64,000 bases of DNA from a virus. Below the pieces are notes generated by a model. It was not told the DNA's origin. It did no database searches and saw nothing but the letters and a program-made list of their open reading frames with translations. Numbering within the stretch: position 1 is the stretch's first letter; each line of letters starts with the position of its first letter. A program made the translations under genes and the position numbers. Of this stretch, positions 6,883-64,000 are shown piece after piece. Where the stretch lies: the IMG/VR virus record IMGVR_UViG_3300043571_000425; one strand, 5' to 3'.

Positions 6883-6898
6883 TAGTTGGCGATCGCGC

Positions 6899-25616: not shown

Positions 25617-25637
25617 TCCAAATTAGAATCCATTTAA

Positions 25638-28319: not shown

Positions 28320-28365
28320 ATTTTTAAATTTAAAAACTACTTCCCATTTTCCCACCACCAAGCTA

Positions 28366-28419: not shown

Positions 28420-28424
28420 AAACT

Positions 28425-35088: not shown

Positions 35089-36087
35089 ATGAATGCAGAG
35101 CAACTGAAGATTATCGCAGAAAATTCACCCCGTGAAGCTGCCAAAATCCTAAATATTCACATCAGAAATGTCCGATATCACAAGCAAAGAATGGAGGGGA
35201 AGAGCGTGAAACAGCTAAAACAACCCAAGACAAACTATAAATGGACAGAAGAAGAGGACAATTATTTACTTACTTTCGGGAATGATTCAACTTATCCAGA
35301 GTTAGAAGAAACACTTAAAGCGTCTCGCACTCAAATAGACTATAGATGCAAAACTCTTGGTGTTTCCCCAAAGAAGCAGACAAACTATAAGAAATGGACA
35401 GAAGAAGAGGACAATTATTTACTTACTTTCGGGAATGATTCAACTTATCCAGAGTTAGAAGAAACACTTAAAGCGTCTCGCACTCAAATAGACCATAGAT
35501 GCAAAACTCTTGGTGTTTCCCCAAAAAAGCTAAAACATCATAAAATCCTCACAGAAGAGGAAAAGGAGATTTGCTTACAAGGCTATCTTCACCAAGCAGC
35601 GGAAAAGCTGGGAGTCTCCATTCCAACTGCTGGACGACGTAGGAGGGAACTACTGAAAATAGATTTAGTGCCATTACCACTACCTACACCAACAAGATCG
35701 CTGATAAATTTTGTTGGTTTCAACGATGTCAAACAACCCGTAGAACCAACAATAGAACCAACAATAGAATCAAGCATGGAATCAATAACAGATCCAGTAG
35801 TAGAGCCAACATGGACACCTAAAAACGACATACTTTTGATCAAGCGAATTAGCAATAATTCCATTGACAAAGTTGCCAAATTATTTGGACAACCTGAAGA
35901 ACAAGTCAAGATTGGGATTAATGAAATTTTGTCGCAATTCCCAGAAATGACTGTCGGACAAATTCATCAAACGAAACTTATTCATTCCTATAGCCCTAAA
36001 TCGGCTGTGAGATATTGCGAGGTAATTCGGGAATATGCAAAGAACAGAGCCGCATATTCACCAGCAAGAATTAAGAACGACAGATGA
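35089..36087 (+). CDS. Myb/SANT-like repeat DNA-binding protein
   Basis: There are two tandem copies of KWTEEEDNYLLTFGNDSTYPELEETLKASRTQID.RCKTLG (a W-x-EEED SANT-like pattern), plus a third degenerate LTEEEKEICL unit. Confidence 0.6.
   Translation: MNAEQLKIIAENSPREAAKILNIHIRNVRYHKQRMEGKSVKQLKQPKTNYKWTEEEDNYLLTFGNDSTYPELEETLKASRTQIDYRCKTLGVSPKKQTNYKKWTEEEDNYLLTFGNDSTYPELEETLKASRTQIDHRCKTLGVSPKKLKHHKILTEEEKEICLQGYLHQAAEKLGVSIPTAGRRRRELLKIDLVPLPLPTPTRSLINFVGFNDVKQPVEPTIEPTIESSMESITDPVVEPTWTPKNDILLIKRISNNSIDKVAKLFGQPEEQVKIGINEILSQFPEMTVGQIHQTKLIHSYSPKSAVRYCEVIREYAKNRAAYSPARIKNDR
35231..35533 (+). repeat. about 150-bp tandem duplication inside the Myb-like gene
   Basis: 35231-35380 and 35381-35533 are nearly identical. 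The second copy has a 3-nt insertion. Confidence 0.85.
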
Positions 36088-38321: not shown

Positions 38322-39806
38322 ATGCCAACACTAGAAGCACTTAAACGCCGTCATCCTGAACATATCCAATTTTGCGAGTATTGGGAATTGCTCACCGCAG
38401 TAGTTGAGGGTGGCGACTCAATAACCGATGTTATGAAACGGAAGTTACTCCCCAACCCTGACGGCAGGCCAGAGGAAATCATGAAGGAGCGGGTCAAGCT
38501 GGCGACGTACTGCAATAAAATCTCACCAATTTTGAGCCGCTTCAATTCAGAACTTTTTAAAAACCCGGCTGTACCAACTGGCAGTAATGACCCGTTTTGG
38601 AGTGATGAGTTTTTAAAGAATGGCGCATTATTAGAAGGTGACGACGACGGGCGGGCATCGTTCAATACTTTCTTGATGAATAGTATGTTTATGGCGTTAA
38701 CGACTGGTAAAGCTATTGCACAAATAGATACTAAATCAGCGGTTGGGGCGGTTTCGCTTGCACAGCAAAAAGAGTCAGGAGAGTTAAATCCGTATGTAAT
38801 TCTCCACCCTAGAACTGCTTTATGGGATTGGAAAAGCGGACGGGACGGGTTCAGTTTTTGCAAATTACACCAGTTTCAATTAGTGCAGCAAACGTGGGAT
38901 AGTGCGCCAGTTCCACAGCATATTTTTACTATTTTTTACCGTAGAGACGGGGCGGTTTTTACTTCTAAATATATTGCTAGGTTAATTCCCAAAGACAATA
39001 AACCCGTACCGCCAAATCCATTTATTAACACGGCAACTGATAAAGAAATAACGATTGAAACTGTTATCGAAGACCAGCCAATTTTCAATGTGCGAGGTAA
39101 GTTTGAATTTCCAATCGTTACTCTGACTTTACCTAAATCACTATGGATGGCGGCGCAATTGTTTGATTGTCAAAAGTCGTATTTCAATCAAACCGCAGCG
39201 ATGGAATACGCGCTTTACACAAATAATTACGCAATGCCCGTGATTACGGGCGTGGACGATGAAGATGATGATCCACTGCAAAATCGGAAAATGGGAGACG
39301 GGTATTATCTGACTCTGAAAACCGGACAATCAATAACATCATTTGAACGTAGCGGGGCAAATATTCAAACTGCCATTGGGTATCGTTCCGAGATTAAACG
39401 GGATATTTATGATGTTTTGCAGCAAATAGCCATGAGTGCGTCTGATGGCGCGGCTATCATTGCCCGTTCTGGAGTCTCTAAGGCTGAGGATAGAAGGCCA
39501 GAAGAAATCCTGCTAGAACGCTACGGACAATGTGTTAAGGAATTTGTTTTGCAAGTTTTGAAACCCGCAGCGATCGCTCACGGGGAATTAGTTGATTGGG
39601 AAATTACAGGCTATGACGAGTTTCTGGGGTTTTCACTGACAGAACTTTTAGAGGATATGGCTCTCATTGACGCTGCAAATATTCCGTCCCCAATATTTAA
39701 AAAGGAAGTGCAAAAGCATTTTGTGAAACGGGCTGCCAGAAGTTATGACCTTGATCCGCAAGCCGTTCAATTGGCACTTGCGGAAATTGACGCAACGGAT
39801 TTGTGA
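38322..39806 (+). CDS. portal protein (DUF4055-like)
   Basis: 494 aa. The N-terminal pattern W.LL..VVEGG......KR.LLPNP......I..ERVKLATYCN.....L..F...LF..P fits DUF4055-type portals. It is the first gene of the head block. Confidence 0.6.
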   Translation: MPTLEALKRRHPEHIQFCEYWELLTAVVEGGDSITDVMKRKLLPNPDGRPEEIMKERVKLATYCNKISPILSRFNSELFKNPAVPTGSNDPFWSDEFLKNGALLEGDDDGRASFNTFLMNSMFMALTTGKAIAQIDTKSAVGAVSLAQQKESGELNPYVILHPRTALWDWKSGRDGFSFCKLHQFQLVQQTWDSAPVPQHIFTIFYRRDGAVFTSKYIARLIPKDNKPVPPNPFINTATDKEITIETVIEDQPIFNVRGKFEFPIVTLTLPKSLWMAAQLFDCQKSYFNQTAAMEYALYTNNYAMPVITGVDDEDDDPLQNRKMGDGYYLTLKTGQSITSFERSGANIQTAIGYRSEIKRDIYDVLQQIAMSASDGAAIIARSGVSKAEDRRPEEILLERYGQCVKEFVLQVLKPAAIAHGELVDWEITGYDEFLGFSLTELLEDMALIDAANIPSPIFKKEVQKHFVKRAARSYDLDPQAVQLALAEIDATDL

Positions 39807-42857: not shown

Positions 42858-44177
42858 ATGCCACCAACCTTTACCGCTAATGATGCACTTTTAGAAACTC
42901 GCATTGCCCAAAGTGCATTAACCCAATTAAACCTGATGGCGATGTACCCCCGTGTCGCTGTCACTAACTACGAACCCGGGGCTTTTGAAGTTGGCAATGA
43001 TGTTAAAATCCGTCGTCCCAAGCGTCGCCGTGCCACTGAATTAAATCCCCGTTCTGCGGCTGGTACTTTTAATGAAGCTGCGTTTTTCTCAGGTTCTATC
43101 ACCTTAGAAAAACTTTGGTTTGATGGCTGGCAGACTTACGGAATTGATCCACGTCAAACCATTGAAAAATATTTAGCGGAAACTGGATCTCAAATGGCGG
43201 ATGCGATCGCTACGCCAAATGATGAGTACATGAACTCATTATTCACTACTTGGACGGCAACGACTGGCACGGTGGCTTTAGGCGCTAACGCTCCGGTAGG
43301 TGTTGCGGCTTGTGTAGATTCCACTACTGGTGCATTGACCAATTTCAATAGTGCTGGGTTAGTTGGCGCGGGTGTAATTCTTGATAGAGAGAATGTTCCT
43401 AAAACTGACAGATTTGGGTTAATTTCCCCTGTTGCGGCTGGTGCATTCTTGCAGGATTCCGTAGCTATTACCGGATTTGCGGCTGCAACCATTGGCGGTG
43501 GTCAAGCAATCCAAAATGGTTTTCAATCATTCCTACCCCGGTTTGGTTTCTTGGTTGGACAAAGTAACGTCATTTCTAGCCAAGCTGGTGTTGCAGATTT
43601 AGACACTAACGCAGGTGTACAGGCAACTTTAGCGATCGCATCAGTTGCCGCTAATACTGATTTCACCTACGCTGACAACGCCGCAACTACCTCCGTCGGT
43701 GCGGTTAATTTAACCCTAACTTGTACCACAGCCTTATCTACTAGCGTGGCAGTTGGGCAAATTATCAGAATTGGTACAAGTGGCGTAGCTAAAGCATTTG
43801 GCGTGATTTTGAGGCTGGATAAAACCACAGCCACCGCGCCCGTCGTTACTGTTGTACCTTTCTCCCCCAATGGCGCAAAACTATTGGCAGCGCAAATCAT
43901 TCCCGGTACTGACTTGTTTAGTGTGCCTAGTATCCCATCAATCAACACTGTCAACCACCGTGAAGGCTTATTGATGGCTACCCGTCGGATTGCTGAACCA
44001 TCCCCCGGTAGTGGTGCGGTAGCTGCTTCAATTACCGACCCCGACACAAACCTGACCATTCAGGTATTCCGGGGCAACTACGACACCGGAACAGTAAGCG
44101 AGAAAAACGCTTACTATATGCTGACTGGTTCTAAAATCAGCGACTTCCGTAAATGTGCGTTAATCCTATCTCTGTAA
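42858..44177 (+). CDS. major capsid protein (P22 coat-like family)
   Basis: 439 aa. The N-terminal pattern ...L..L.L....PRVAV.NYE.....VGNDVKIRRPKR resembles the P22-type coat N-arm. It sits in the position after the scaffold gene. Confidence 0.7.
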   Translation: MPPTFTANDALLETRIAQSALTQLNLMAMYPRVAVTNYEPGAFEVGNDVKIRRPKRRRATELNPRSAAGTFNEAAFFSGSITLEKLWFDGWQTYGIDPRQTIEKYLAETGSQMADAIATPNDEYMNSLFTTWTATTGTVALGANAPVGVAACVDSTTGALTNFNSAGLVGAGVILDRENVPKTDRFGLISPVAAGAFLQDSVAITGFAAATIGGGQAIQNGFQSFLPRFGFLVGQSNVISSQAGVADLDTNAGVQATLAIASVAANTDFTYADNAATTSVGAVNLTLTCTTALSTSVAVGQIIRIGTSGVAKAFGVILRLDKTTATAPVVTVVPFSPNGAKLLAAQIIPGTDLFSVPSIPSINTVNHREGLLMATRRIAEPSPGSGAVAASITDPDTNLTIQVFRGNYDTGTVSEKNAYYMLTGSKISDFRKCALILSL

Positions 44178-49038: not shown

Positions 49039-49104
49039 TTAATCGGCTGGGTGCGATGCCGTACAAATCCGCACAGACAAAACAACGATGAGCAGGATAA
49101 AACA

Positions 49105-50019
49105 ATGACAAACGCAGTATTAGCACCAGATTTTGAAGATCAACAGTTTTCCGCGCCAGTCTCTGAGCGTCCGCCAATTGCTCTAATAATTAATCCCAGG
49201 TTTGGAAGAACTGGTATTCTTCCTTACGGATTTGCGATAACTAAAAAAGATGCAGAATCATGTTCCTTTGATCTCCCTGAAAATTGGGAGATAGTAGAAC
49301 ATGAGTGGCCTAGTGGCGACAAAGAAATTGTTCTAATGACTTTAAAGCCAAGACTATTAATCCTCTCTAGCACCCCTGTTTACTTGAAAAGCAGGAACGA
49401 AGGATTCTTGTCTGGGAAGATGAGAGAAAAAAACGAACTCATCGGCGAGATGAGAAAATTCAGTGATTTTTGGAAGAATAAAAATCTCTACAAAACAGCA
49501 AGTTGGAGTTATTGCTACGTCTTAGGACAAGACAATAAACCCTGTCACACTGCGCCAATCAGGATATCCCTTGGTGGGGCAAGCGGGGCTTCGTTTAACG
49601 CTTCATGGTTGCAACATCAAACTAAAGAGACAAATCGAGGTGGTTTTTGCTGTGACATGGAGAAAGCTTACGCTCAAAGCAGGAAACAGCCATATAAACC
49701 GATGGGGGACTTGTTTCATGCTCATTGCATTTATGAACCCACAATAACAGATGCCGTGCGGGGCATAGCTCCTAACACAGCAAATGTAGCTGTTGTTGAG
49801 AGCTATAAACCAGCTACCATGTCTTCTCTTGTGACAAACGGCAGTGAGTTGAGTGAGCAAATAAAACTCAGCAGAGAGTTAGTCAAGGATTGGAGACCGT
49901 CACTAAAAGAAACTGCTACCGAAGATGAAGGCAAACCCAATCCGAATGAGTTTAATGCGGCTGCTCAATCGGCAGGACAAAACCCAGAAGATGACGAATT
50001 TGGCTATCCTCCATACTAA
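49105..50019 (+). CDS. hypothetical protein
   Basis: ORF track 49051-50019. The ATG at 49105 (MTNAVLAPDF) is preferred, because 49051 lies only 13 nt after the upstream stop and the intervening N-terminal stretch looks low-complexity. Confidence 0.55.
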   Translation: MTNAVLAPDFEDQQFSAPVSERPPIALIINPRFGRTGILPYGFAITKKDAESCSFDLPENWEIVEHEWPSGDKEIVLMTLKPRLLILSSTPVYLKSRNEGFLSGKMREKNELIGEMRKFSDFWKNKNLYKTASWSYCYVLGQDNKPCHTAPIRISLGGASGASFNASWLQHQTKETNRGGFCCDMEKAYAQSRKQPYKPMGDLFHAHCIYEPTITDAVRGIAPNTANVAVVESYKPATMSSLVTNGSELSEQIKLSRELVKDWRPSLKETATEDEGKPNPNEFNAAAQSAGQNPEDDEFGYPPY

Positions 50020-50112: not shown

Positions 50113-50316
50113 ATGACTGTAAAAGAGTTTAAAGAATATTTGGATAAATTCTTAACGGAAAATCCAGAATTAGAAAATCAGGAATTTGTAATTTACGATG
50201 AGTCTAATATGACTCATCACACGATAGAAACAATCAGAGACGACGGGTATCATGATGTTGTTTCTGTAGTGATTTATACGCTAACCCGCCAAACCCCTGA
50301 TTTTTTTCTTCCCTAA
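50113..50316 (+). CDS. hypothetical small protein
   Basis: ORF track. Its 3' end overlaps the convergent terL 3' end. Confidence 0.45.
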   Translation: MTVKEFKEYLDKFLTENPELENQEFVIYDESNMTHHTIETIRDDGYHDVVSVVIYTLTRQTPDFFLP

Positions 50317-51780
50317 CTTCCGTTCTCGCGTCTCTTTCTTGAACGGATAGATTGAATGAATTAGATAACCCGCTGCGTCGCTTAAATGTGATAGCAGCGG
50401 GTTATCGCTTTTATTGATGCCCTCATCGCTCCATGTCACCTGTTCCAAATCCTTGATAAAGTTTTGGCAGTTAGCAAAGTGAATATAGCAACGGTTTTGG
50501 CGGAAAAGTTGATTAACTGAGTGAACCCGATTCACAACAAACGGGTTAGCGTCGGCAAACTTGCGAACCAAATAACCTTTACCTCCCAGTGCTGCTAGTG
50601 GCTCTAATCCCTGAAAAACGATATCCCACGATGACAACCGACTAGCCGCAGTTCGAGCGCGTCCGGTGGCATCTCCAAATATCTGGATTTCTGGGGGTAT
50701 GCCGTATTTCTCTACCCAGTCCACAATACTTTCTGTGAGTTCCCAAATGTCGGAGTCCATGATTGACCATTCCCGGCAAAAATGAACCTCATTGCCCCGT
50801 TGTTGAGCCGCTAGACAAACTATAGGCGTGTGGTTAAAGTCAAAGGTTAGGAGTAGTGGTAAATTTGGGTCATATTCCAAAAGTTCGGCATCTTCACCTT
50901 GCAAGGCATGAGTTTGACGGTCAAAGTATTTGTAAATTAATCCGATTGAAGTATTAACAAACTTACCTTCAATTTCTTGCTGGTAAAGTTCATCACTATA
51001 ATTACCTTTTAATGACTCTACATAGTCATCGCTTAAATGGATATTATCTATTGTGGAAATATTTGTCATTTGGTGATTTTGAATCAGCTTCTCACTTCTT
51101 TTTGGATCACCAAATTTTGCATATAAATAGTTATATCCTGCGGGGGATGTCGTCAATAATCCATGCCCTTTCTCTTTATTCTTTTCTCTACCTAACCGCC
51201 CATCAATTGTTAAAAAAGCCTGTTCCGGTGCGTAGGCAAACTCATCACCCCAAAACCAATCAATTTGCAACCCACGTCCGCTTTGCACTTTACCAGAAAA
51301 GTTATTTGCTGAAATTACATAAGCGAAAGCCTTTTCATGTCCAATATAGCAATGTTGCGCCCGTGCGATCGCTATGGCATTATCTTCTATGGTTTCACGC
51401 CAAGGCACAAGCGGGATATTGAAAGTACGACATACTTCAACAAATGTCACAAGGGTGGCTCTCGCCAATTGTCCATAATCATTTGCGCTGATCATGCCTC
51501 TGGATTTGGGGCTGGAGATTGCACGGTCACAAACCCACACACCGCCCATAAAGGTTTTCCCGCTTCCTATGCCACCCAGCAAAAGAGTCCATCTGTGTTC
51601 AGGCAATTCATTTGTATTCCACCGGACTAAATTAATAAACTCAGTTTGTCCGCCGGGGTTAGGAGAGAATGACTCATACAGCGTTATCGGGTTTATTGTT
51701 GGCGTTACCCTCGCTCTGGTATTTTGCTGTGTCTTAATCTTATTTTTAGGATTTAATCTGGCAGGGGATGGAAAAATCAT
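50281..51780 (-). CDS. terL: terminase large subunit
   Basis: 499 aa. Walker A is LLGGIGSGKTF, Walker B-like is WFWGDEFA, and the C-terminal nuclease-like region has FDFNH...GD.TG...D. Confidence 0.85.
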   Translation of the reverse strand: MIFPSPARLNPKNKIKTQQNTRARVTPTINPITLYESFSPNPGGQTEFINLVRWNTNELPEHRWTLLLGGIGSGKTFMGGVWVCDRAISSPKSRGMISANDYGQLARATLVTFVEVCRTFNIPLVPWRETIEDNAIAIARAQHCYIGHEKAFAYVISANNFSGKVQSGRGLQIDWFWGDEFAYAPEQAFLTIDGRLGREKNKEKGHGLLTTSPAGYNYLYAKFGDPKRSEKLIQNHQMTNISTIDNIHLSDDYVESLKGNYSDELYQQEIEGKFVNTSIGLIYKYFDRQTHALQGEDAELLEYDPNLPLLLTFDFNHTPIVCLAAQQRGNEVHFCREWSIMDSDIWELTESIVDWVEKYGIPPEIQIFGDATGRARTAASRLSSWDIVFQGLEPLAALGGKGYLVRKFADANPFVVNRVHSVNQLFRQNRCYIHFANCQNFIKDLEQVTWSDEGINKSDNPLLSHLSDAAGYLIHSIYPFKKETRERKLGKKKIRGLAG

Positions 51781-53142: not shown

Positions 53143-53213
53143 ACATGATAATTGTAACACAATTTATAGGTATTTCAAACAGTTGTACTATGGTTTCGAT
53201 AAGCAACGTTAAA

Positions 53214-53284
53214 GCGAGTAGGTAGGATTTGAACCTCCGATCATGGGTTGGACACCCACAGCTTTACCACTCAGCTATACTCGC
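53214..53284 (-). tRNA. tRNA-like gene, anticodon UCC (Gly) if read canonically
   Basis: The acceptor is GCGAGTA/TACTCGC, the D-arm has AGTGGTA, the anticodon arm is GTGGG-TGTCCAA-CCCAT and the T-arm is GGAGG-TTCAAAT-CCTAC. Oddities are G at position 33 and one extra C between the T-stem and the acceptor. Confidence 0.55.
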
Positions 53285-55287: not shown

Positions 55288-56424
55288 CTATTTTCCAGGT
55301 TTCGCCGTCGTAGATTTAACCGCCGTCGTCACAGAACAAGCCAATTGTGATTTTGACATCGCCACAGTCAACGCCTCTAACGCCGCTTCGCGTTCCACAG
55401 TAGCAGGGCATTTTTTAGCTATAAAATCTGCTAAATCAGCAAACTTTGCGGTCAGTTGCCATTGCTCAGTTAGTGCCATGTGCCGGGTAATCAATAGATT
55501 TATAGATTTATCAATAACATATTTTTTCCGCCATTTACAAGCGGTTGTGGAGTCTACGCCCAAAAATATCTCACACCACTGCAAAGATTTTCCAAGCTCA
55601 ATTGCTTCAATAACTTTTAGCTTTAATTCAATATCAAAACCGACAGGCGCGGTCGGCTTGGGATTGACCCTAAACCAATATTTACAATCTTTGCAAGAAT
55701 ACCTACCGCCACGCCTAACGGTGTTGTAACTCTGGCATTTAGGACATTTAACACGCCCGTCAGCAATGGCGCGTAACTTTTCCAATCCCTCTTTTTCAAT
55801 TTGGCGGATCTTCCTGGACCCCATGCCATGAAGTCTGGCAAGTTCCCCAATCGGTATTTTATTAATGTAAAGTCCGTTGATAATTGCGGCGTGTATTTCC
55901 GGCAACTGGTTTATCAATGGCGTGATTCTATCCAGTTCCTCCTGTTGTTCATCCGTCAAAGCCTCCGGTAATTCTGAATTATGCTGATTACACGCCGTTG
56001 CACATTCTTTAGCTAAGTCCAATGGAATATCAAGAGATAAAGCAGCTTGTTCATAGGTAACGCCGTGCTTTTGTGCATACCGTTTAATCTTTTGGTGAGT
56101 TTCTTGTAGTGTTCTAGGAACTTTGATCAGCCGCCCCTTGTCACGGATAAATTGCAAGATTGCACCATTAATAAATAGAACCGCAATACTTGATAATTTA
56201 CACTTCTTTTCAGGGTCAAATCTCTCAATTGCCCTAATTAATCCAGTTGCCCCAATTTGGACTAAATCATCATAGGGTAGGTCACAGCAGAAGGTCATTT
56301 TATGAGCAACTTTATGGACTAGTCCCATGTTGTTAATAACAATCTTGTTTCTAATTCTTATATCTTTAGTGGCGTGATAATTGATTAATAATTGAAGATT
56401 GTCTTCATAATTGGTATTTGACAT
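55288..56424 (-). CDS. sigma-70 family sigma factor fused to a Zn-ribbon/HTH (IS1 InsA-like) C-terminal extension
   Basis: Region 2 is DLVQIGATGLIRAIERFDP....LSSIAV..I.GAILQFIRD. Region 4 is IGELARLHGMGSRKIRQIEKEGLEKLR. Then come CPKC....CKDC and ELKLKVIEAIELGKSLQWCEIFLGVDSTTACKW. Confidence 0.85.
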   Translation of the reverse strand: MSNTNYEDNLQLLINYHATKDIRIRNKIVINNMGLVHKVAHKMTFCCDLPYDDLVQIGATGLIRAIERFDPEKKCKLSSIAVLFINGAILQFIRDKGRLIKVPRTLQETHQKIKRYAQKHGVTYEQAALSLDIPLDLAKECATACNQHNSELPEALTDEQQEELDRITPLINQLPEIHAAIINGLYINKIPIGELARLHGMGSRKIRQIEKEGLEKLRAIADGRVKCPKCQSYNTVRRGGRYSCKDCKYWFRVNPKPTAPVGFDIELKLKVIEAIELGKSLQWCEIFLGVDSTTACKWRKKYVIDKSINLLITRHMALTEQWQLTAKFADLADFIAKKCPATVEREAALEALTVAMSKSQLACSVTTAVKSTTAKPGK

Positions 56425-56660: not shown

Positions 56661-57272
56661 ATGATTTTAAACGATGCACAGATAACGGAATTGGCAGCTA
56701 GTGGGATGATCAACCCATTTCAGCCTCAATTAATTAGAGAGGTTAGTATCTGCGGTCATGAACTAATGGAGAATCAGATCAGGAAAGTGATTAGTTATGG
56801 GCTGTCGTCTTACGGTTACGATATCCGATTAAGCCCTAAAGAATTTAAAGTTTTTAAGCATATTCCGGGTACAATTGTTAACCCTAAGAACTTTAATTCT
56901 GGTAATTTAGAGTCAGTAGAATTACAGCGTGATCAATGGGGTGATTTTTTCATAATCCCCGCTCATTCTTACGGGCTGGGTGTGGCAATTGAAAGGTTAG
57001 AAATGCCGTCAGATTTAACAGCTATTTGTGTGGGAAAATCAACTTATGCGAGGGCTGGTTTAATAGCTAATTTAACACCTGTAGAAAGTTCGTGGCGAGG
57101 GAATTTAACTATCGAGATATCCAATTCATCAAGTGCAGATTGTCGAGTGTATGCGAATGAAGGTATTTGTCAACTGCTATTTTTCAAAGGTGAACCATGC
57201 GCTGTTTCTTATGAAGATAGGCATGGTAAATATCAAGATCAACCTGAGCAAATTGTACTAGCAAAAGTTTAA
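56661..57272 (+). CDS. dcd: dCTP deaminase
   Basis: ILNDAQI, SYGYDIRL, IIPAHSY.LG...E....P and VGKSTYARAGL fit Dcd family motifs. 203 aa. Confidence 0.85.
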   Translation: MILNDAQITELAASGMINPFQPQLIREVSICGHELMENQIRKVISYGLSSYGYDIRLSPKEFKVFKHIPGTIVNPKNFNSGNLESVELQRDQWGDFFIIPAHSYGLGVAIERLEMPSDLTAICVGKSTYARAGLIANLTPVESSWRGNLTIEISNSSSADCRVYANEGICQLLFFKGEPCAVSYEDRHGKYQDQPEQIVLAKV

Positions 57273-57273: not shown

Positions 57274-57498
57274 ATGAATCACGATCATCCATCTCATTAC
57301 AACCAAGGCAATATAGAGTGTATTGACGCGATCGCCTCCGCACTTTCTCCCCAAGAATTAGACGGTTTTGTTCGCGGTAATGTAATGAAATATATATGGC
57401 GATCGCCTCACAAAAATAAAGTTGAGGACTTGAAAAAAGCCCTATGGTATTTGAGTTGGTATATATCTAGGTTGGAGAAAGATGATGCAACTAATTAA
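57274..57498 (+). CDS. DUF3310-family protein
   Basis: PSHYNQGNIECIDAI......F..GNVMKYIWR...K....EDLKKA.WYL is the DUF3310 pattern. Confidence 0.6.
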   Translation: MNHDHPSHYNQGNIECIDAIASALSPQELDGFVRGNVMKYIWRSPHKNKVEDLKKALWYLSWYISRLEKDDATN

Positions 57499-58219
57499 AG
57501 ATTCTCGATTTCAAGTAGTTATTGATAAAGATGCGAGTTCCCCAAACCCCCAAGTCGCTATATGGAAAGGTCAGCATAGATGTGTTGCCGAAAAGTTTTT
57601 ACCCGACGATAAGACACCTACCCCAGAAAGCTGTGGAGAAGCCGTCATCAAATATCAGTTAGCAGGTGACAGGGGGCATTATTCAGTTCTCAGAAAAGCC
57701 TTTGTTAGTTTCCACTGTTTAGGATTTCCCCATAGTGTCGTGAGTCAAATCACAAGACATCAAGATTCAGCTTTTCTTGTTCAGTCAATGCGATATACAG
57801 GACAAAGAATTGTTGATTGTGCTGAGGGTGATATTCCTATTGAGGATGTTTTCTATTTCCGTCCTGTGGGGAGTTATTTTGACAGGAAAGGGAAAAAATA
57901 TGAATACACGGAAGAGAGAAGAGAGAAGCAAAAAAGAAGCAGATTGTTAGCAGCAAAAGAATATGCTAATGAAATGAGTCTGGGATATTCTGAGGAGCAT
58001 TCCAGAGATGATTTACCTTATGGATTCCGCCAAGATTTTGACCTTAGTGGAGACTTGCAAGCTGTTTGGCATTTGCTTGACCAGCGCACCAAAGCCGATT
58101 CTCAAATAGAAGTCAGAACACTTGCATGGATGATATTAGATTGTTTGAAAGAATTTACTCCTGAGCTTACCCAATGGTATTTAGAAAATCGTGCGGGTAA
58201 AGCTAGACTTGCTCCTTGA
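57482..58219 (+). CDS. thyX: flavin-dependent thymidylate synthase ThyX
   Basis: The ThyX signature is TRHQDSAFLVQSMRY (RH.x.S....S.RY). 245 aa. Confidence 0.85.
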   Translation: MMQLIKDSRFQVVIDKDASSPNPQVAIWKGQHRCVAEKFLPDDKTPTPESCGEAVIKYQLAGDRGHYSVLRKAFVSFHCLGFPHSVVSQITRHQDSAFLVQSMRYTGQRIVDCAEGDIPIEDVFYFRPVGSYFDRKGKKYEYTEERREKQKRSRLLAAKEYANEMSLGYSEEHSRDDLPYGFRQDFDLSGDLQAVWHLLDQRTKADSQIEVRTLAWMILDCLKEFTPELTQWYLENRAGKARLAP

Positions 58220-58424
58220 TGTTTAACGCGATCGCTTTTCCATCTTGTAGGGATTGGTGCGCGATCGCATTTCTATTATACCGAATTATGTTATTATTAG
58301 TAAATACCCAAAAACGCGACTATTCAAAGTAGCCACGTTTTTAATTATCGGGTATGCGAATTATTTGTGATGTAGCAATATTTAAACAATGTTATTATTT
58401 ATGGAATAACTATTAATAAATAAC

Positions 58425-59342
58425 ATGAAAAATCAAATTATTCACGGTGATTGTTTTGAGGTTTTAAAGAGTATTTCTGATAAATCAATTGATGCTGTAA
58501 TCACAGATCCGCCTTATAAGTATTTAAAGCATAAACTAGAAACTAACTGGGATGAGAAACTATTTTTCATTGAGGTTTTACGCATCCTCAAAAAAGATAG
58601 TTTCTTAGTATTTTTCGGCAGGGGTGAATCTTGGTTTAGGTGGAATTATCTTTGTCAGGAATTAGGCTTTAATTTTAAAGAAGAGATTATATGGGACAAG
58701 GTTAGAACTTCTAATCCTATGTGTACGATGCCACGTTCTCATGAAAATATTGCTATTTATACAAATGGTAAAGGTACATTAAACGAAGCTAGGATAGATA
58801 AGCTGGAATATGATTCAATCGCAAACCCAAAAGCTATGGTTAATGATTTCAAGAGAATGCTGGCAACTATTAAAAATATTAATTCATGGGATGATTTTAT
58901 ATTATTTAAAAGCGGTACTCTAGGTAGTTCTGATGTTATTAGGCGCAGTGAGGTTACGATACAAGGCGGAATGAAAAAATGTGATAGAGGTTCAGGAACT
59001 TTTAAATCTCACGACAAAGGGCGGAGAATACCCTCTATTTTCAGATGTTTGAACGATTACTATAATTACGTACACCCCACACAAAAGCCATTATTACTTA
59101 TACAGAAATTAATAGAATTGACCACTGTTTCAGGTGCTATGATCTTAGATCCCTTTTGTGGTAGTGGTACAACTGCCGTAGCCTGTAAAGAACTTGGTAG
59201 AAATTATATTTGCATTGAGAAAGAATTAGAATATTATCAAATAGCTTGTCAACGCATAAACCAACCTATTGAACCTGAAAAAGAGGTTGTTCCGGTGGTT
59301 GAGGAGTTGCCGAAAGTTGAGCAATTATCACTATTTGGTTAA
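58425..59342 (+). CDS. DNA methyltransferase (N6-adenine/N4-cytosine, DPPY type)
   Basis: Motif IV is VITDPPY near the N-terminus and motif I is DPFCGSGTTAVAC near the C-terminus. This is the beta-class order. Confidence 0.85.
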   Translation: MKNQIIHGDCFEVLKSISDKSIDAVITDPPYKYLKHKLETNWDEKLFFIEVLRILKKDSFLVFFGRGESWFRWNYLCQELGFNFKEEIIWDKVRTSNPMCTMPRSHENIAIYTNGKGTLNEARIDKLEYDSIANPKAMVNDFKRMLATIKNINSWDDFILFKSGTLGSSDVIRRSEVTIQGGMKKCDRGSGTFKSHDKGRRIPSIFRCLNDYYNYVHPTQKPLLLIQKLIELTTVSGAMILDPFCGSGTTAVACKELGRNYICIEKELEYYQIACQRINQPIEPEKEVVPVVEELPKVEQLSLFG

Positions 59343-59558
59343 TCCCTAAAACCCTTACCCTGCCTACGTTCCCAGCTTTCCCTACAGAATCTTATTCATG
59401 GTTGCCAAAAGTGAAGAATTTAATTAATTTTTTCTTCTGATTGATCTGTTTCCCCTAAAATCCTCTTTTTGATTAAACGCATTTAAGTTATATGGCATGA
59501 AGAAAAAGATTCTGTATGGAAAATCCAGAACCTAGTCACAGCAAGGGTTATTGAAATA

Positions 59559-59587
59559 TTGATAATCTTATTAAAATAGCCTATAAT
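59559..59587 (+). promoter_or_regulatory. near-consensus sigma70-type promoter of the type IV-B-like operon
   Basis: TTGATA (59559-59564), a 17-nt spacer, then TATAAT (59582-59587). Confidence 0.6.
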
Positions 59588-59692
59588 ACCCATAACGGAC
59601 AAAACGCCCCAGTGGCCCTGAACCCACCAAGACGTTTTTTATCAGTCCGCTCAATCTGCTCATTTTTCACCCGCACAGATCAAGAAATATAT

Positions 59693-60571
59693 ATGAATAA
59701 TAACGTAAAACTCCCAGAATTGCAAGGTACAACCGTACTCACCCGCCAACAAATTTTAGACACCCGTGAAATGGCGTTTGGCGTGGCGGACAAGATGAGC
59801 GATCGCCAACTTCTAACCCACATGGGGATATTAAACTCATTGATATGGCGGGCTGCTACTGACTATCAGGCTATACGCAAGGATAACGACGGCGTGGAAA
59901 GGATTATTCCTGAGAACTGGAATAATTTATTAGCCTGTTCGGTTCAGGGTGAGGTACAAATAACAATCCCTATTGACTGGACTGACAAGTATTTAAAAAC
60001 CTATTGGACGGGCGCGTTCCATGACCAGAAAACCGTGAGAACCTACCGGAAACAGCAGTTATCATGGGGACTATTTTATTTTGATATTGAGAACCGTCCC
60101 AAGGGCGCTATGTGGGGAGCATTCACAGGCACTCCCAACCAAGGAATAGCTACACCGCCCGTATTAGAACGGGTTGACGTTGCCAGAATATTAATTTTTT
60201 ATCAGATGTTTGATCAAATTAGGCGCTCCAAAATTAACGAAAAACTTAAAAATTCTGAGGATGTAACCGCGTTTGACTGTATGCCGGATCATGGCGGTAT
60301 GGTGATGGTTGAACTCTACAACGCCTTATTTTTTGGTGTCTCAGAGTTTTTTGGGGGTTCTTATGGGAGTTCCGATATAGTCATCGGGAGCATAGAACCC
60401 TTACCAGCGACTAAGGTGATTGTATGGCAGTGGCAGAAGCCGAAGGGACTATTTAGGGCATTATGGGAACGGATGGTGATTAAGGCTGGATTTGTTGCTA
60501 AACAGGCGTTAAAGATTGTCACTCAGATGGTAGTCGAGCCGATGGGAGAATTAGCAGAAGTTCCGTTTTAA
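59693..60571 (+). CDS. hypothetical protein, paralog of 12520-13341; first gene of the type IV-B-like operon
   Basis: ORF track 59612-60571 (GTG start). The ATG at 59693 gives a length and alignment matching the paralog. Shared blocks are listed under 12520-13341. Confidence 0.6.
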   Translation: MNNNVKLPELQGTTVLTRQQILDTREMAFGVADKMSDRQLLTHMGILNSLIWRAATDYQAIRKDNDGVERIIPENWNNLLACSVQGEVQITIPIDWTDKYLKTYWTGAFHDQKTVRTYRKQQLSWGLFYFDIENRPKGAMWGAFTGTPNQGIATPPVLERVDVARILIFYQMFDQIRRSKINEKLKNSEDVTAFDCMPDHGGMVMVELYNALFFGVSEFFGGSYGSSDIVIGSIEPLPATKVIVWQWQKPKGLFRALWERMVIKAGFVAKQALKIVTQMVVEPMGELAEVPF

Positions 60572-60617
60572 ATGTCCAATTTTCTCCGATAATAATGTTA
60601 GTTAATTTAAAATTAAG

Positions 60618-61136
60618 ATGAACAATAATAATTATGGAATGTCTCAAACACGAGACAAATGTTATGGCGTAGCCGCTTGTCTTACCTATTGGGCTTTCAA
60701 GTGCCGTGACAGAAAACGTAGTCCAGCGATGGGTACTAAAACCTGGACTTACTTGGAATCAAGTATTAGAAATTCGGCTGAAATATCAACTAATTTAGAA
60801 GATTATTTGCAGCGACTTTGTGATAAACTTTGTTCACAATTACGCCCAATCGAGTTAACAAAAATAATTCAGCCAACACAACGGATACTAAGAGTAAATG
60901 AAGATGCGACGGAAATCAAGGAACTTCCTGTAGATCAAAACTTAGTATTCATGGGATGGTTGGACTTATTGAATGACATAGCTCCTCACGGATTTAGTGA
61001 ATGGGATGTCTTGGAACTACTGAGAACCAAAGCAGGGATTATTCAAGTAATTTGTAGATTACGGTTTGAGGAAGACCGCAGTTTAGGGTTAGATGAACCA
61101 GAAGAGTTTATAGAAGTTGAGGTGACAAATGTTTGA
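60618..61136 (+). CDS. small helical protein in the Cas11 (small subunit) position
   Basis: 172 aa, with helix-favouring composition. Its 8-nt overlap with the Cas7-like gene suggests coupling. The call rests on position only. Confidence 0.45.
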   Translation: MNNNNYGMSQTRDKCYGVAACLTYWAFKCRDRKRSPAMGTKTWTYLESSIRNSAEISTNLEDYLQRLCDKLCSQLRPIELTKIIQPTQRILRVNEDATEIKELPVDQNLVFMGWLDLLNDIAPHGFSEWDVLELLRTKAGIIQVICRLRFEEDRSLGLDEPEEFIEVEVTNV

Positions 61137-62259
61137 TAATTACGATGTTTTTGACCGTGAAAGATTGACATTGCATTGTGTAATTACGACACAAACGCCA
61201 CTTTCACATATTGGGGAAGTGTCGGGAAATGTGAGCAATTTAAAAACATTAAAATTACTGGATTTTGAAGGTAATCCCAGAAGTGTTTTCACCTATTCTG
61301 GAAATGCCTTGAGAAATGGTTTGTTACGGCGTGTAGGTGTAGCTGCGGCGTTAACTGAATTAGGATTACAGGTAAATCCTGATACACACCATACAATGTT
61401 TGCAGGTGGCAGGATTGATGCCGGTACAGCTTCAGATATGGAACTTGATAAAAAGATCCGGGTTCTAATGCCTTGGTTGTCGGTCTTAGGAACTGCTAAA
61501 CCTGCTAAAGTGTTTGGTTCTAAAGATGCCCAAATGGTGCAAGGTAGGATTAATGTAGGTTCTGCTTACTTGGCTTGTTATGAGTCAGCAGAGTACATCT
61601 ACAATCAGATACCAGCAATATTACCACCGGAAATACAGCCAGCCATTCAGAAGCTAATTGAGGCTAAAAATAGACTATCTTCAGACCCATTCACCCCTAC
61701 AAAGGCTGAGGATTTAGATAATTGGAATCAAGTAAAAAGTGATTATTTACCTTTAATTAGAAAGGTAATGAAAACTTGGACTGAGTATTTAACGGTTGAT
61801 CAAACTACCCGCAGAGATGCAACTTTAGATCCTAATTTGATTAAATTTCTGCCAACAGAAGTACAGGCGCAACTCAAGGGAGATGGTGCAGCTAAAGAGA
61901 AAAAATCAGATCAAATGATTGCTTCCGATAGATTAATTATGCCAGGAGCAAAACTATATTCAAGATGGGACTTGAACTGCACCAAGGTTGAGCAGGGTTG
62001 GATTTTTGATACATTACTCAAGTTTGCACAATTTCCATACTTGGGCGGTAAAGGTAATCGTGGCAATGGTCGAGTTAGCATGAATTTCTGGTTTAGTTCT
62101 GAATCAGAGCGCGGATTGTTGTGGAGTTCTGAAAGTGGAGTTGAGAGCGATAAATTCAATCTAGCACACGCTAAATATAGGGAATATATCAATCAGTATC
62201 AACAGTTTTTAAGTGAAGCGAAAACATCAACTGAATTAAGGAGTCTGTTAGGTGGATAA
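61129..62259 (+). CDS. csf2: RAMP protein, Cas7/Csf2-like
   Basis: LTLHCVITTQTPLSHIGE is an N-terminal RAMP strand, YSGNALRNGLLRR follows, and the C-terminal glycine loop is YLGGKGNRGNGRVSMNFW. Confidence 0.7.
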   Translation: MFDNYDVFDRERLTLHCVITTQTPLSHIGEVSGNVSNLKTLKLLDFEGNPRSVFTYSGNALRNGLLRRVGVAAALTELGLQVNPDTHHTMFAGGRIDAGTASDMELDKKIRVLMPWLSVLGTAKPAKVFGSKDAQMVQGRINVGSAYLACYESAEYIYNQIPAILPPEIQPAIQKLIEAKNRLSSDPFTPTKAEDLDNWNQVKSDYLPLIRKVMKTWTEYLTVDQTTRRDATLDPNLIKFLPTEVQAQLKGDGAAKEKKSDQMIASDRLIMPGAKLYSRWDLNCTKVEQGWIFDTLLKFAQFPYLGGKGNRGNGRVSMNFWFSSESERGLLWSSESGVESDKFNLAHAKYREYINQYQQFLSEAKTSTELRSLLGG

Positions 62260-62941
62260 TCTAAGAATTACAGCCCATTTAGCGACATCTTTAGCAGCTT
62301 ATGACAATTGGAGTCCATCGTTAGAAGGGATTTTAGTTTATAAACTCTTGGAAGAAAATAATCTATTTTCACCTAATCCCACGCCTAGTCAAGTAGCAGA
62401 TGTCCAGACTTTTGTTGAGCAGAATTTACTACTAAAACAGGGGATAATTAAATCAGAGAAATATTGGTGTGTGAGTTCACCTTATTATGTTTTGCAAGGT
62501 GAAGCTACAGACAAATATAGAAAGCGGTGGGATAATCACGACAATAATTTAGATTGGGGTAAGCGCAAACCTAAATTTCTAACAGGTGAAGGTGCGGAAA
62601 AGTCCTATGATTTACCTCTTTACACAAGGTCAATTAATTCTATTTCTTGGTTTGCTGTAGGCGATAAGTCAAAAATTAAGGATTTATTGCAAACTGTTAC
62701 TCACATTCAGAAAAAACGTAGTTACGGAAATGGTGAAGTTAGGGAATGGGAAATAGGGATAATTTACAATGATTACCATCTGTGGCGTGACAGTAAATTA
62801 ATGCGCCCAATTCCTGTTAGATTACTTGATCAGAAAATAGATAATCCTCAGATGATCTGGGGGTGGAGAAGCCCCGCGTGGTTAGCTGCAAATAAGGAGT
62901 TATGCTATATGCCAAAGGATAATGTGATTTATGCTAAGTAA
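62252..62941 (+). CDS. csf3: RAMP protein, Cas5/Csf3-like
   Basis: The N-terminus is LRITAHLATSLAAY....PSLEGILVYKL and the C-terminal G-loop is KKRSYGNGEVREWEI. It has an 8-nt overlap with csf2-like. Confidence 0.55.
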   Translation: MDNLRITAHLATSLAAYDNWSPSLEGILVYKLLEENNLFSPNPTPSQVADVQTFVEQNLLLKQGIIKSEKYWCVSSPYYVLQGEATDKYRKRWDNHDNNLDWGKRKPKFLTGEGAEKSYDLPLYTRSINSISWFAVGDKSKIKDLLQTVTHIQKKRSYGNGEVREWEIGIIYNDYHLWRDSKLMRPIPVRLLDQKIDNPQMIWGWRSPAWLAANKELCYMPKDNVIYAK

Positions 62942-63677
62942 CGGATCTGGCGTTCAATATCCCTGGTTAAAAAAGAAAATAATCAGGGCAAAAGACTCAA
63001 TTAAAACCTGGTTAGAGCAATGCGATTATCAGGTTTACGCCAGCATTTCGGGCGGTAAAGATAGCTTGGTGATGTCGCATTTAATTAGGCAAATTTATCC
63101 TGATTGTCCTTTGGTATGGGTAAATCAGGGTTCGCTTGCCGAATGGGACGATTGCATTGAACTATTAGGGTTTTTGAAAACTCAAGGCTGGAATATTATT
63201 GAACTTTGTCCAGTTCGTGATCTGTGGCATTTATATCTTGATTATGGCGTTCCTCTTGAAGGAACAATGGACACAAAAGCCGATAAAATAATCAACCAAA
63301 AATTGATTTATGACCCTCTTAATGAGTACCAAGAACTGAATCAAATTAAGGGTTATGCGTGGGGAATACGTAAGCAAGAAAGCAGAAACCGCGCATTTTA
63401 TCTCAACAAATATGGTGAAGTGCATACGCTCAAAAACGGGTTGATTTGTTGCTCACCCGTGGCATTTTGGACTACTCAAAATATCTGGGAATATATTGAT
63501 ATGCACTCGTTAAAATACCCTGCTATTTATGATGTTGATAGAATGACAGTTAGGAATGGATGCCCAATCGGTACAACAGGTGCTAACTGGGGAAGATTAG
63601 CAGAGTTAAGAAAGCATTACCCAGATATTTATAATCAATTTGCTACTAAATTTCCACAGGTATCAACCTATGTCTAA
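62931..63677 (+). CDS. PAPS/APS reductase-family (CysH-like) PP-loop protein
   Basis: YASISGGKDSLVMSHL carries the SGGKDS PP-loop. RKQESRNR and CSPV..W are typical of the PF01507-type fold. Confidence 0.8.
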   Translation: MLSNGSGVQYPWLKKKIIRAKDSIKTWLEQCDYQVYASISGGKDSLVMSHLIRQIYPDCPLVWVNQGSLAEWDDCIELLGFLKTQGWNIIELCPVRDLWHLYLDYGVPLEGTMDTKADKIINQKLIYDPLNEYQELNQIKGYAWGIRKQESRNRAFYLNKYGEVHTLKNGLICCSPVAFWTTQNIWEYIDMHSLKYPAIYDVDRMTVRNGCPIGTTGANWGRLAELRKHYPDIYNQFATKFPQVSTYV

Positions 63678-64000
63678 TTGCTACCTTTGCGCTAAACCAG
63701 GCAACAACCCATTGGAATTATCCAATACATTTACCATGCACTCATCAGCTAAATGCCCGGATTCTAAAGTGCTTTGTAATCGCTGTCACTCTACAATTTC
63801 CGGTAATCAAAAGCAGCTTTGGTACTGGAATGAAGGTAAAAATAAATGGTCAAAGCTGTGGGGACGTTCTTTGTCCAGGGTTTATCAGGGTGATAAGCTA
63901 ATTGCGCCTGTCGTTGAAGGTGAATATACAGAAGGCAAGGATACTTTTTCAATAGTTAAAAACTTGCTGACTAGGGTGGGAATTAGGCAATACTTGTTAA
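63670..64000 (+). CDS. Zn-finger protein, Csf1-like candidate (partial, runs off the window)
   Basis: It is not in the ORF track because no stop is reached. The ATG at 63670 overlaps the cysH-like stop. The product starts MSNCYLCAKPG...AKCPDSKVLCNRCHSTISG, a CxxC...C...CxxC pattern. Confidence 0.5.
   Translation, partial: MSNCYLCAKPGNNPLELSNTFTMHSSAKCPDSKVLCNRCHSTISGNQKQLWYWNEGKNKWSKLWGRSLSRVYQGDKLIAPVVEGEYTEGKDTFSIVKNLLTRVGIRQYLL

Follow-up and report, generated by a model that had tools for sequence, protein, structure and literature searches.

Almost all known type IV-B CRISPR-Cas loci (CRISPR, short palindromic repeats that are clustered and regularly interspaced) are carried by plasmids of actinobacteria, a setting in which phenotypes are difficult to interpret. 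Reviews describe type IV-B as the one common CRISPR-Cas subtype whose role is still unresolved (PMC8175902, PMC11656645). Type IV loci are known from plasmids, some prophages, and some phages, and virus-borne type IV-B loci have been described in Fuxiviruses (PMC7038947, PMC10848311, PMC11656645), where a role in counter-defense or inter-element conflict was proposed (PMC10848311). A 2020 survey recorded type IV-B in Actinobacteria, Archaea, Firmicutes, and Proteobacteria and did not list Cyanobacteria. The actinobacterial loci of Mycobacterium sp. JS623 (7JHY) and Rhodococcus jostii RHA1 plasmid pRHL3 have csf1, cas11, csf2, and csf3 with a linked cysH-like gene, and they lack an array, cas6, an adaptation module, a helicase, and a nuclease (PMC7937560, PMC7038947). 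Here we describe the same gene set in the viral stretch IMGVR_UViG_3300043571_000425, whose full 64,000 nucleotides (nt) we call the window and in which the locus under study occupies positions 59559 to 64000. From its genes, the region from 60618 to ~64422 very probably constitutes a functional type IV-B effector cassette on a tailed cyanophage, with the order cas11-csf2-csf3-cysH-csf1.

The stretch from 59559 to the end of the window contains six co-directional open reading frames (ORFs). The features of the locus are as follows.

59559..59587, plus strand: candidate promoter, sigma-70-like, TTGATA-17-TATAAT, agreeing with the consensus at 11 of 12 positions, upstream of g1 and of the whole gene string
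59696..60571, plus strand: g1, 291 amino acids (aa), phrog_34986
60618..61136, plus strand: predicted cas11, the type IV small subunit, 172 aa, typeIV_Cas11 profiles
61129..62259, plus strand: csf2, the type IV Cas7 backbone, 376 aa, Csf2_0_IV
62252..62941, plus strand: csf3, the type IV Cas5, 229 aa, GTG start, Csf3_0_IV
62931..63677, plus strand: gene for a CysH-like PP-loop enzyme, 248 aa, PAPS_reduct PF01507
63670..64000, with the full gene predicted to end at 64422, plus strand: csf1, the large-subunit signature protein, cut by the window end, Csf1_0_IV

A first-pass annotation, made by reading the letters of the window, had described six genes in one direction with the last five overlapping and had proposed a divergent, array-less type IV-B-like module with a cysH gene. 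Both statements held. The overlaps among the last five genes are 8, 8, 11, and 8 nt, and profile searches identified four Csf/Cas11 subunits and a PAPS reductase-family protein with no array, cas6, helicase, or nuclease. All of the peptide motifs that the annotation quoted were present in the translations. The genes cas11, csf2, csf3, cysH, and csf1 are translationally coupled, and a gap of 46 nt lies between g1 and cas11.

Profile hidden Markov models (HMMs) for csf1, csf2, csf3, cas11, and PAPS reductase matched all five proteins, at 1e-40 to 2e-6. The product of 61129 to 62259, which had been read as a RAMP/Cas7 protein, matched the PADLOC model Csf2_0_IV at 1.1e-36 together with six further type IV Cas7 models, and its top PDB sequence match was 7jhy_e, the Csf2 of the Mycobacterium type IV-B complex (6e-4). 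Alignment with RHA1 Csf2 (283 aa; 29% identity) kept the RAMP motifs, and weak Csm3 profile and PDB matches fell at the C-terminal glycine loop. The protein belongs to a "long" Csf2 subfamily, ~90 aa larger than actinobacterial Csf2. In a library clustered at 50% identity, full-length long Csf2 (380 to 445 aa) accounted for ~20 clusters, and ordinary Csf2 proteins (260 to 350 aa) matched the long form only in two separate stretches. The proposed Cas5/Csf3 protein at 62252 to 62941 matched Csf3_0_IV at 1.5e-40 and carried a precomputed PF27782 Csf3 assignment, and tblastn with it recovered csf3 in 72 plasmid records, mostly type IV-B plasmids of Rhodococcus and Mycobacterium. Against the curated NCBIfam models, the Csf2 match to TIGR03115 (8.7e-8; 31.8 bits versus a cutoff of 130) and the Csf3 match to TIGR03116 (5.9e-10; 39.1 bits versus a cutoff of 140) were both partial. 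Public copies of these proteins are all annotated as hypothetical because these matches are partial and far below the cutoffs.

Sequence beyond position 64000 came from a Logan metagenome contig, L001 (labels of this form denote the related loci and contigs that we compared), which is 100% identical to window positions 58496 to 64000 (5505 nt) and runs 1633 nt further. This 1.6 kb contained no array and completed csf1. The open-ended ORF from 63670 had been called Csf1-like for its CxxC...CxxC finger; its 110-aa fragment matched Csf1_0_IV at 9.6e-6, and the full protein (250 aa, L001:5175-5927) did so at 6e-23, with an N-terminal zinc ribbon, C4xxC7...C36xxC39. Past csf1, L001 has three more ORFs, one of 147 aa and two on the minus strand, none with a PADLOC match.

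The product of 60618 to 61136, noted earlier as a small helical protein in the Cas11 position, is accepted here as Cas11 on the basis of profile, size, fold class, and position upstream of csf2, and it is the weakest of the assignments. Three typeIV_Cas11 PADLOC models matched it (2e-6, 2.9e-4, and 6e-3). Its sampled homologs agreed: 39 of 39 matched the typeIV_Cas11 model PDLC01183 (best, 7.8e-10), and 38 of the 39 matched Cas11_2_IV. An AlphaFold2 (AF2) model (predicted local distance difference test [pLDDT] score, 82) was all-helical, with seven helices; a fold search with it gave no Cas11 match in the PDB.

The CysH-like protein at 62931 to 63677 carries the SGGKDS PP-loop of PAPS reductases intact, as had been noted, and matches PF01507 PAPS_reduct at 4.5e-15. 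At the aligned SGGKDS position the loop of the Escherichia coli PAPS reductase is degenerate, and alignment with the E. coli enzyme (1sur, 2o8v) extends only through residue 207. The ECGLH catalytic-cysteine motif is absent, and the sole C-terminal cysteine of the protein (RNGCPIG) is replaced by proline in L018 and L019. A C-terminal GRLxxLRxxxPxxxxQ motif is common to the window, RHA1, and Gloeobacter CysH proteins. Cas-associated CysH (CasCysH) has been described as a likely ATP alpha-hydrolase lacking the reductase cysteine (PMC8175902), and our protein fits that description in its motifs. Because SGGKDS is intact and the reductase cysteine is missing, it is most likely an ATP pyrophosphatase (adenylating) that works with the complex and not in sulfur assimilation. 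Weak PADLOC matches to DndC, SspD, and BrxP were also seen.

The enzyme slot beside csf3 and csf1 was occupied by a PAPS reductase-family gene in every related locus. Two CysH lineages fill it: the window type, with SGGKDS, and a "G-type," with SWGKDS. Identity between the two, and of either to RHA1 CasCysH, is only 25 to 30%. G-type CysH occurs in L012, L013, L019, L033, and L034 and is 37 to 43% identical to the protein of the Gloeobacter plasmid pGMOR1 (L022). In L012, L013, L033, and L034, either a cupin gene or a 230-aa ORF follows the G-type cysH gene, before csf1.

L033/L034:12565-12933: cupin gene between G-type cysH and csf1, its product 41% identical to the Gloeobacter cupin
L012:14223-14915: 230-aa ORF between G-type cysH and csf1
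L013:12527-13198: 230-aa ORF between G-type cysH and csf1

The surroundings of L033 and L034 encode ResIII/DEAD and PIF1/AAA_30 helicases, a GIY-YIG protein, and an AIPR protein.

No CRISPR array was found in the 64 kb of the window plus the 1.6 kb beyond it by TRF, a k-mer periodicity scan, or a repeat search, and the near-identical loci L008 and L020 are likewise free of one in the 10 kb that follow csf2. PADLOC detected no cas6, DinG/RecD helicase, Cas10-HD, or nuclease in the six operon proteins and three downstream ORFs, and Pfam and NCBIfam scans of the six operon proteins were equally free of such matches. A tblastn search with the Gloeobacter Cas6 gave nothing in the window or in any phage locus. 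Adaptation genes (cas1 and cas2) were absent from the operon, its neighbors, and ~30 larger ORFs, a scan that did not cover every small ORF. The earlier claim that the whole 64 kb lacks an array and other Cas genes was therefore borne out for the array, and for cas1, cas2, and cas3 it holds for the ORFs scanned.

The operon was present in 16 IMG/VR viral contigs, with Csf2 identities of 63 to 98%, and the order cas11-csf2-csf3-cysH-csf1 was identical in all 16. A large protein collection contained 301 relatives, of which the best 120 were all at least 61% identical, and over 100 representatives of metagenomic clusters, at least 59% identical, fall in the clade. The ratio of nonsynonymous to synonymous substitution rates (dN/dS), measured against four loci of rising distance and with synonymous sites near saturation, was 0.02 to 0.11 across all five genes (csf2, 0.03 to 0.07; csf3, 0.07 to 0.11; cysH, 0.06), which argues that the cassette is functional. 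Searched by Megablast with the region, 50,697 phage and 72,556 plasmid records yielded no match, and tblastn with Csf2 gave none among the phage records; the module is absent from sequenced isolate phages.

Several related loci depart from the window in instructive detail. A 103-aa ORF lies between cas11 and csf2 in six close relatives (L002, L003, L007, L008, L009, and L020), and its C terminus (...EVEATNV) repeats that of Cas11, so that the overlapping csf2 start is kept.

L002:642-953: 103-aa ORF
L003:811-1122: 103-aa ORF
L007/L008/L009/L020:9697-10005: 103-aa ORF

In L012, a 1.5-kb cassette of four ORFs, three of them on the opposite strand, separates csf2 from csf3 (L012:11124-12625); considered as a possible cas6, it was rejected because it holds four small unrelated ORFs. 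L019 (IMGVR_UViG_3300016466_000585; 1699-8665) has a single cas11-csf2 pair followed by csf3-cysH(G)-csf3-csf1, a 325-nt gap, and csf3-cysH(W)-csf1. Its ORFs are all intact and overlapping, its three Csf3 proteins are 37 to 52% identical to one another, its two Csf1 proteins are 51% identical, and cas11 and csf2 fragments lie just upstream (1402-1732). This layout fits alternative RNA-handle-recognizing heads on one backbone. Two more distant long-Csf2 loci have a Cas6 domain and no array: L037, with the order cysH-x-csf1-cas11-cas6 fragment-csf2-csf3, and L039, with cas6 on the opposite strand and cas11-csf2-csf3-HNH-cysH-x-csf1. Their neighbors, DUF4055 in L037 and DUF5895 and a lysin-like gene in L039, hint at phage carriers. 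The DUF5895 gene of L039 follows csf1, and this domain also occurs in the window at 49051-50019. Pentapeptide-repeat proteins stand beside the type IV-B loci of L037 (1583-2806), L039 (1046-1453), and RHA1 pRHL3 (L023:431-1684, beside cysH).

The first gene of the string, g1, is not part of the core type IV-B cassette, although the first-pass annotation had counted it as a member; it is, by its relatives, a co-directional neighbor from a cyanophage-specific family. It matches phrog_34986 at 1.4e-126, and the named members of that family come from Aphanizomenon phage vB_AphaS-CL131 (CL131; gp018 and gp052) and one Dolichospermum metagenome-assembled genome (MAG), the rest being unnamed metagenome proteins. 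The ATG at 59696 fits the homologs as its start, and the GTG at 59612 is unlikely. The g1 protein is 57% identical to CL131 gp018, which is not followed by csf genes, and g1 is present in 5 of the 16 related viral loci with a csf operon and missing from 11. Its GC content at third codon positions (GC3) is 0.47, versus 0.31 to 0.35 for the csf and cysH genes. This distribution and GC3 ruled out g1 as a Cas component. No Pfam, PADLOC, or NCBIfam match was found, and its AF2 model (pLDDT, 69) had no fold match. It is possibly cotranscribed with the csf genes. A g1 paralog said to head a nuclease unit at 12.5 kb does exist at 12520-13341 (25% identity; E value, 2e-25), but the supposed nuclease unit is actually a tail-fiber module, in which the paralog precedes a J-like gene (phrog_31, 7.7e-205).

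The near-consensus promoter reported upstream of g1 is present and is the top promoter-like site within 59300 to 64000. Its standing as a promoter is only plausible, and we treat it as a candidate, because such sites are no commoner here than in shuffled sequence (15 found versus 13.5 expected). No terminator-like hairpin was found within 59300 to 64000. Upstream of the promoter candidate, the intergenic interval that follows the methyltransferase gene, at 59343-59560, folds into an extended, imperfect hairpin (-50.1 kcal/mol; z, -4.1) whose stability none of 200 shuffles equaled. The hairpin is single-copy and conserved in the nearest relatives only. Homology with those relatives begins at 59322-59341, so the hairpin region is also a mosaic-block boundary.

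Genes for terminase, portal, and capsid and for a lambda-like tail identify the carrier as a tailed phage (Caudoviricetes). Its principal genes and those directly upstream of the operon are listed below.

5153-5830, minus strand: tail L
13815-16079: lambda J-like tail fiber, phrog_31, 7.7e-205
16517-17041: minor tail protein
23721-24509: Rha regulator
27690-28463, minus strand: Cro/CI-type helix-turn-helix (HTH) protein
33602-35014: DnaB helicase
38322-39806: portal
42858-44177: major head protein
50281-51780, minus strand: terminase large subunit
55288-56424, minus strand: sigma factor
56661-57272: dCTP deaminase-like gene, directly upstream of the operon
57482-58219: ThyX, directly upstream of the operon
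58425-59342: N6/N4 DNA methyltransferase, directly upstream of the operon

The operon thus adjoins a DNA-modification and nucleotide-metabolism block, as had been stated. GC3 of the csf, cysH, methyltransferase, and ThyX genes (57482-64000) is 0.28 to 0.35, versus ~0.40 for structural and replication genes, which suggests an accessory block with a history different from that of the phage core. The best isolate-phage relatives of the terminase large subunit reach 27% identity at most, and the phage lineage itself is therefore new. Among the relatives of Csf2 and Cas11 are proteins from the bins of Dolichospermum and Sphaerospermopsis MAGs. The probable host is Dolichospermum or Aphanizomenon, an assignment by indirect links that we make because g1 is 57% identical to CL131 gp018, because of the MAG bins, and because the nearest cellular locus is in Gloeobacter. 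The description of the phage as temperate is unproven: a scan of 20 larger window ORFs gave no integrase domain, and in 185,579 genomes, one for each species, the clade had no integrated copy and occurred only on short MAG contigs (Dolichospermum and Spirulinaceae). Long contigs with the module were all viral.

Several other features of the phage genome were recorded. An Rfam Hammerhead_II ribozyme match (2355-2422, minus strand; 38.7 bits versus a gathering threshold of 37; E value, 2.4e-4) lies within the 81-nt gap between minus-strand ORFs 1942-2340 and 2422-2787. Two phage tRNA genes are on the minus strand, tRNA-Ser(TGA) at 25637-25711 (ARAGORN only) and tRNA-Gly(TCC) at 53213-53284 (ARAGORN and Rfam). 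An 18-nt near-perfect tandem repeat, GAAACATCAATCTGAGTC, occurs eight times at 30671-30814 inside a 400-aa ORF (30459-31661), and a 153-nt repeat occurs twice at 35228-35530 inside ORF 35089-36087, whose product weakly matches SLIDE, HTH, and sigma-70 region 4.

Arrays do occur in some relatives of the window. A Cas12u2-like gene (587 to 627 aa) lies 1 to 6 kb downstream in 8 of the 16 related viral loci, in a 622- to 627-aa form in L006 and L010 to L015 and only in a 587-aa form in L017. Five loci (L006 and L012 to L015) have arrays 1 to 6 kb downstream of csf1, with 37-nt repeats (for example, CTTGCAGGATGACTAATCCCTTCTGAGGGATTGAAAC), ~35-nt spacers, and 7 to 28 units.

L006:17722-21105: Cas12u2-like gene/array region
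L013:16339-19324: Cas12u2-like gene/array region
L014/L015:14188-20849: Cas12u2-like gene/array region
L012:16612-17087: Cas12u2-like gene/array region
L010/L011:19302-21128: Cas12u2-like gene/array region

The 622- to 627-aa gene product matches Cas12u2 at 9e-58 over its C-terminal half, and the arrays of L006, L013, L014, and L015 (three of the four distinct array-bearing loci) begin ~300 to 380 nt after this gene. The two arrays of L015 differ in their repeats, and a 587-aa TnpB/Cas12u2-like gene (3e-166) stands on their far side; in L010, L011, and L012 the Cas12-like gene is at the edge of the available sequence. Homologs annotated as transposases occur in Cylindrospermopsis phages RM-2018a and Cr-LKS4 (44%) and in CL131 (28%), whose TnpB-like gene and array were assigned to type V-U2 (PMC6293099). 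None of these phages has csf genes. None of the five repeat types that occur in related phages has a copy, even a solitary one, in the window, which also contains no Cas12-like gene. The type IV-B and Cas12-like modules assort independently, because each occurs without the other. A reading in which the arrays are part of the type IV-B module was considered and rejected as the main one on two grounds, the position of the arrays beside Cas12u2-like genes and their independent assortment, and we treat them as belonging to a type V-like module. The 66 unique spacers of these arrays went unmatched in both the window and the related loci, and searches of IMG/VR with two spacer cores found only their own arrays.

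By analogy with the Mycobacterium complex (7JHY; PMC7937560), Csf2 would polymerize on an RNA of ~55 to 60 nt, Cas11 would form the minor filament, Csf3 and Csf1 would cap the ends of the complex, and the complex would bind nucleic acid without cutting it. Neither Csf3, Csf1, nor CysH can be seen in 7JHY. Going by its motifs, CasCysH may adenylate or otherwise activate a substrate with ATP. Guides could be supplied in trans as host-derived, Cas6-processed CRISPR RNAs (crRNAs), and during infection the complex would serve the phage by sequestering or redirecting guide RNAs of the host, in counter-defense or in competition between elements. We infer the counter-defense role. Supply of RNA in trans from host arrays is the least certain part of this scheme, and we prefer it only tentatively. 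It is preferred because relatives (pGMOR1, L037, and L039) keep cas6 without an array, because the subunits for handle and target recognition are conserved and even multiplied (L019), and because Nostocales hosts carry several array types targeting such phages (PMC6293099). A more specific version is that in this cyanophage clade, apparently lytic, an array-less Csf complex acts in counter-defense by loading host Cas6-processed crRNAs, which it would sequester or put to the use of the phage, and that Csf3-CysH-Csf1 is an exchangeable head, which would set both the repeat handle captured and the subsequent action of the PP-loop enzyme. It fits because cas6 occurs without an array, the heads are multiplied in L019, and CysH is swapped with or without cupin; even so, we regard it as unlikely. 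If true, this clade would offer the first clear example of viruses recruiting Cas effector proteins, and not repeat RNAs, against CRISPR, and crRNA capture would supply the type IV-B function.

Several results weigh against the cassette reading or against its crRNA-capture part. The phage genome extends past the window, so the negative result for arrays spans only 64 kb plus 1.6 kb. An RNA partner was sought near the operon, and there were no solitary repeats and no Rfam match at an E value of 0.1 or below in L001 or L015. The CysH-like protein also matches a general phage PAPS reductase family, phrog_424 (3.5e-27). Only profile HMMs linked the 60618 to 61136 protein to Cas11: Foldseek of its AF2 model against the PDB gave a best E value of 0.89 and no Cas11 match, hmmsearch with its family profile against PDB sequences gave nothing, though 7jhy_h was in the library, and hhalign with the Rhodococcus Cas11 gave a probability below 1%, comparisons that are limited by small helical bundles and shallow profiles. 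In the sole biochemical work on type IV-B, the complex bound heterogeneous, mostly non-CRISPR RNA even with a coexpressed array (PMC7937560), and because of this crRNA capture lacks direct support.

That heterogeneous RNA, bound in E. coli, is also the starting point of the main rival, in which the Csf proteins form a sequence-independent filament on RNA or other nucleic acid and CysH, sometimes with cupin, is the real effector, modifying or protecting nucleic acids with no CRISPR RNA involved. The cassette would then work alongside the neighboring DNA methyltransferase and nucleotide-metabolism genes, and the operon does adjoin the N6/N4 methyltransferase, ThyX, and dCTP deaminase genes, with a common low GC3. 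The same rival draws on the slot between csf3 and csf1, always PAPS reductase-like yet filled by two lineages only 25 to 30% identical, on the cupin that accompanies the G-type lineage in L033, L034, L038, and Gloeobacter, and on the weak DndC, SspD, and BrxP matches. However, Dnd-type sulfur transfer needs a cysteine and none is conserved, cas6 in related array-less loci points to specific processing of repeat-derived RNA, and Csf3 and Csf1, the class 1 handle- and target-recognition subunits, are under purifying selection and multiplied in L019; we judge this filament explanation to be somewhat unlikely. If guides are nevertheless used, they might come from the phage-borne Cas12u2-like type V arrays, making the Csf complex a crRNA-guided repressor, like type IV-A, of competing phages or host genes. 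The Cas12u2-like genes in 8 of the 16 loci and the five arrays 1 to 6 kb past csf1 suggest such a pairing, as does an Actinomyces plasmid with type IV-B, an inactivated type V-B, and a mini-array (PMC12669027, Extended Data Fig. 7). This is quite improbable, since the window, L007, L008, L016, and L018 to L021 have type IV-B without Cas12 or array in the available sequence, CL131 and the Cylindrospermopsis phages have the Cas12-like gene without type IV-B (CL131 with an array as well), three of the four distinct array loci have the usual type V layout with the array ~300 to 380 nt after the Cas12-like gene, cas6 is absent from all phage loci, and the spacers point nowhere in these loci (0 of 66 unique spacers matched, and the two cores found only themselves in IMG/VR).

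Two further explanations concern what the cassette does for its carrier. It could be a prophage-borne defense or superinfection-exclusion module benefiting a lysogen, a role already suggested for type IV loci of plasmids and prophages, in line with the Rha-family regulator and Cro/CI-type HTH protein of the window and with reports of type IV loci on prophages (PMC7038947, PMC11656645). We find this improbable, given that the 20 larger ORFs lack an integrase and that among the 185,579 species genomes the clade sat on short MAG contigs and never in a chromosome, the long contigs all being viral. Alternatively, the locus could be a decaying or hitchhiking remnant without function, or the cysH-like gene an independent auxiliary gene of sulfur metabolism; the uniformly hypothetical public annotations and the missed NCBIfam cutoffs are what one might cite for this. 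It is strongly disfavored, to the point of being extremely improbable, by dN/dS values of 0.02 to 0.11 in all five genes, by ORFs that are intact and overlapping in every locus, and by a cysH gene that overlaps both neighbors and lacks the reductase cysteine motif.

The five-gene set is fixed, and all five genes are under strong purifying selection, in an abundant clade of Nostocales bloom phages, and an explanation by plasmid maintenance does not apply to a phage. Natural variants are informative here: cas6 is present in some loci and absent from others, CysH is of either of two lineages and may or may not be accompanied by a cupin, heads are multiplied, and type V arrays adjoin some loci only. 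The locus is therefore a natural phage-host setting for asking what type IV-B does, and it makes that question more tractable without answering it. It extends the range of type IV-B to Cyanobacteria and their viruses and leaves the composition of type IV-B unchanged.

Among cellular loci, the one closest to the window is itself unannotated, that of Gloeobacter morelensis pGMOR1 (NZ_CP063846, L022:4475-9482). Identities to the window are 53% for Csf2, 48% for Cas11, 38% for Csf3, and 42% for Csf1, and its order, cas11-csf2-cas6-csf3-cysH-cupin-csf1, is that of the window with cas6 and cupin added. It is on a plasmid, its cas6 is bona fide (PADLOC, 1.2e-50), no array lies within 7 kb, and its CysH is of the G-type (SWGKDS), 26% identical to the window protein. 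A second, longer PAPS reductase-family gene lies 4 kb downstream on pGMOR1, after a DNA cytosine methyltransferase gene. The Fuxiviridae, viruses of Bathyarchaeia, resemble the window in having a virus-borne type IV-B locus with a CysH-like gene by csf3 and no adaptation genes (PMC10848311); they differ in their archaeal host, two-repeat mini-array, and separate Cas4, a likeness drawn from their description only (PMC10848311). Type IV-A, which is associated with DinG and uses crRNA guides for transcriptional interference between plasmids, shares the Csf1/Csf2/Csf3 core, is nuclease-free, and is carried on mobile elements (PMC11656645), but unlike the window it has an array, Cas6/Csf5, and DinG and has neither Cas11 nor CysH. 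The type III-A Csm complex, with its filaments of Csm3 and Csm2, is architecturally closest to the Csf2-Cas11 double filament (PMC7937560), whereas the window has no Cas10, no cyclic-oligoadenylate signaling, and no demonstrated RNase activity.

The literature searched held no paper linking cyanophages with csf genes. Relative to the actinobacterial loci, which are on plasmids, the window locus is on a tailed cyanophage and its Csf2 is 376 aa long, versus 283 to 300 aa, at ~29% identity; no pairwise, profile-profile, or fold similarity was detected between its Cas11 and actinobacterial Cas11. The gene order is noncanonical, as had been proposed: in RHA1 pRHL3, cysH is divergent from csf1-x-cas11-csf2-csf3, whereas in the window cysH is embedded and coupled and csf1 is last. 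The components are thus those of type IV-B, and the new features are the long Csf2, the permuted order with an embedded cysH gene, the variable enzyme slot, and the phage carrier.

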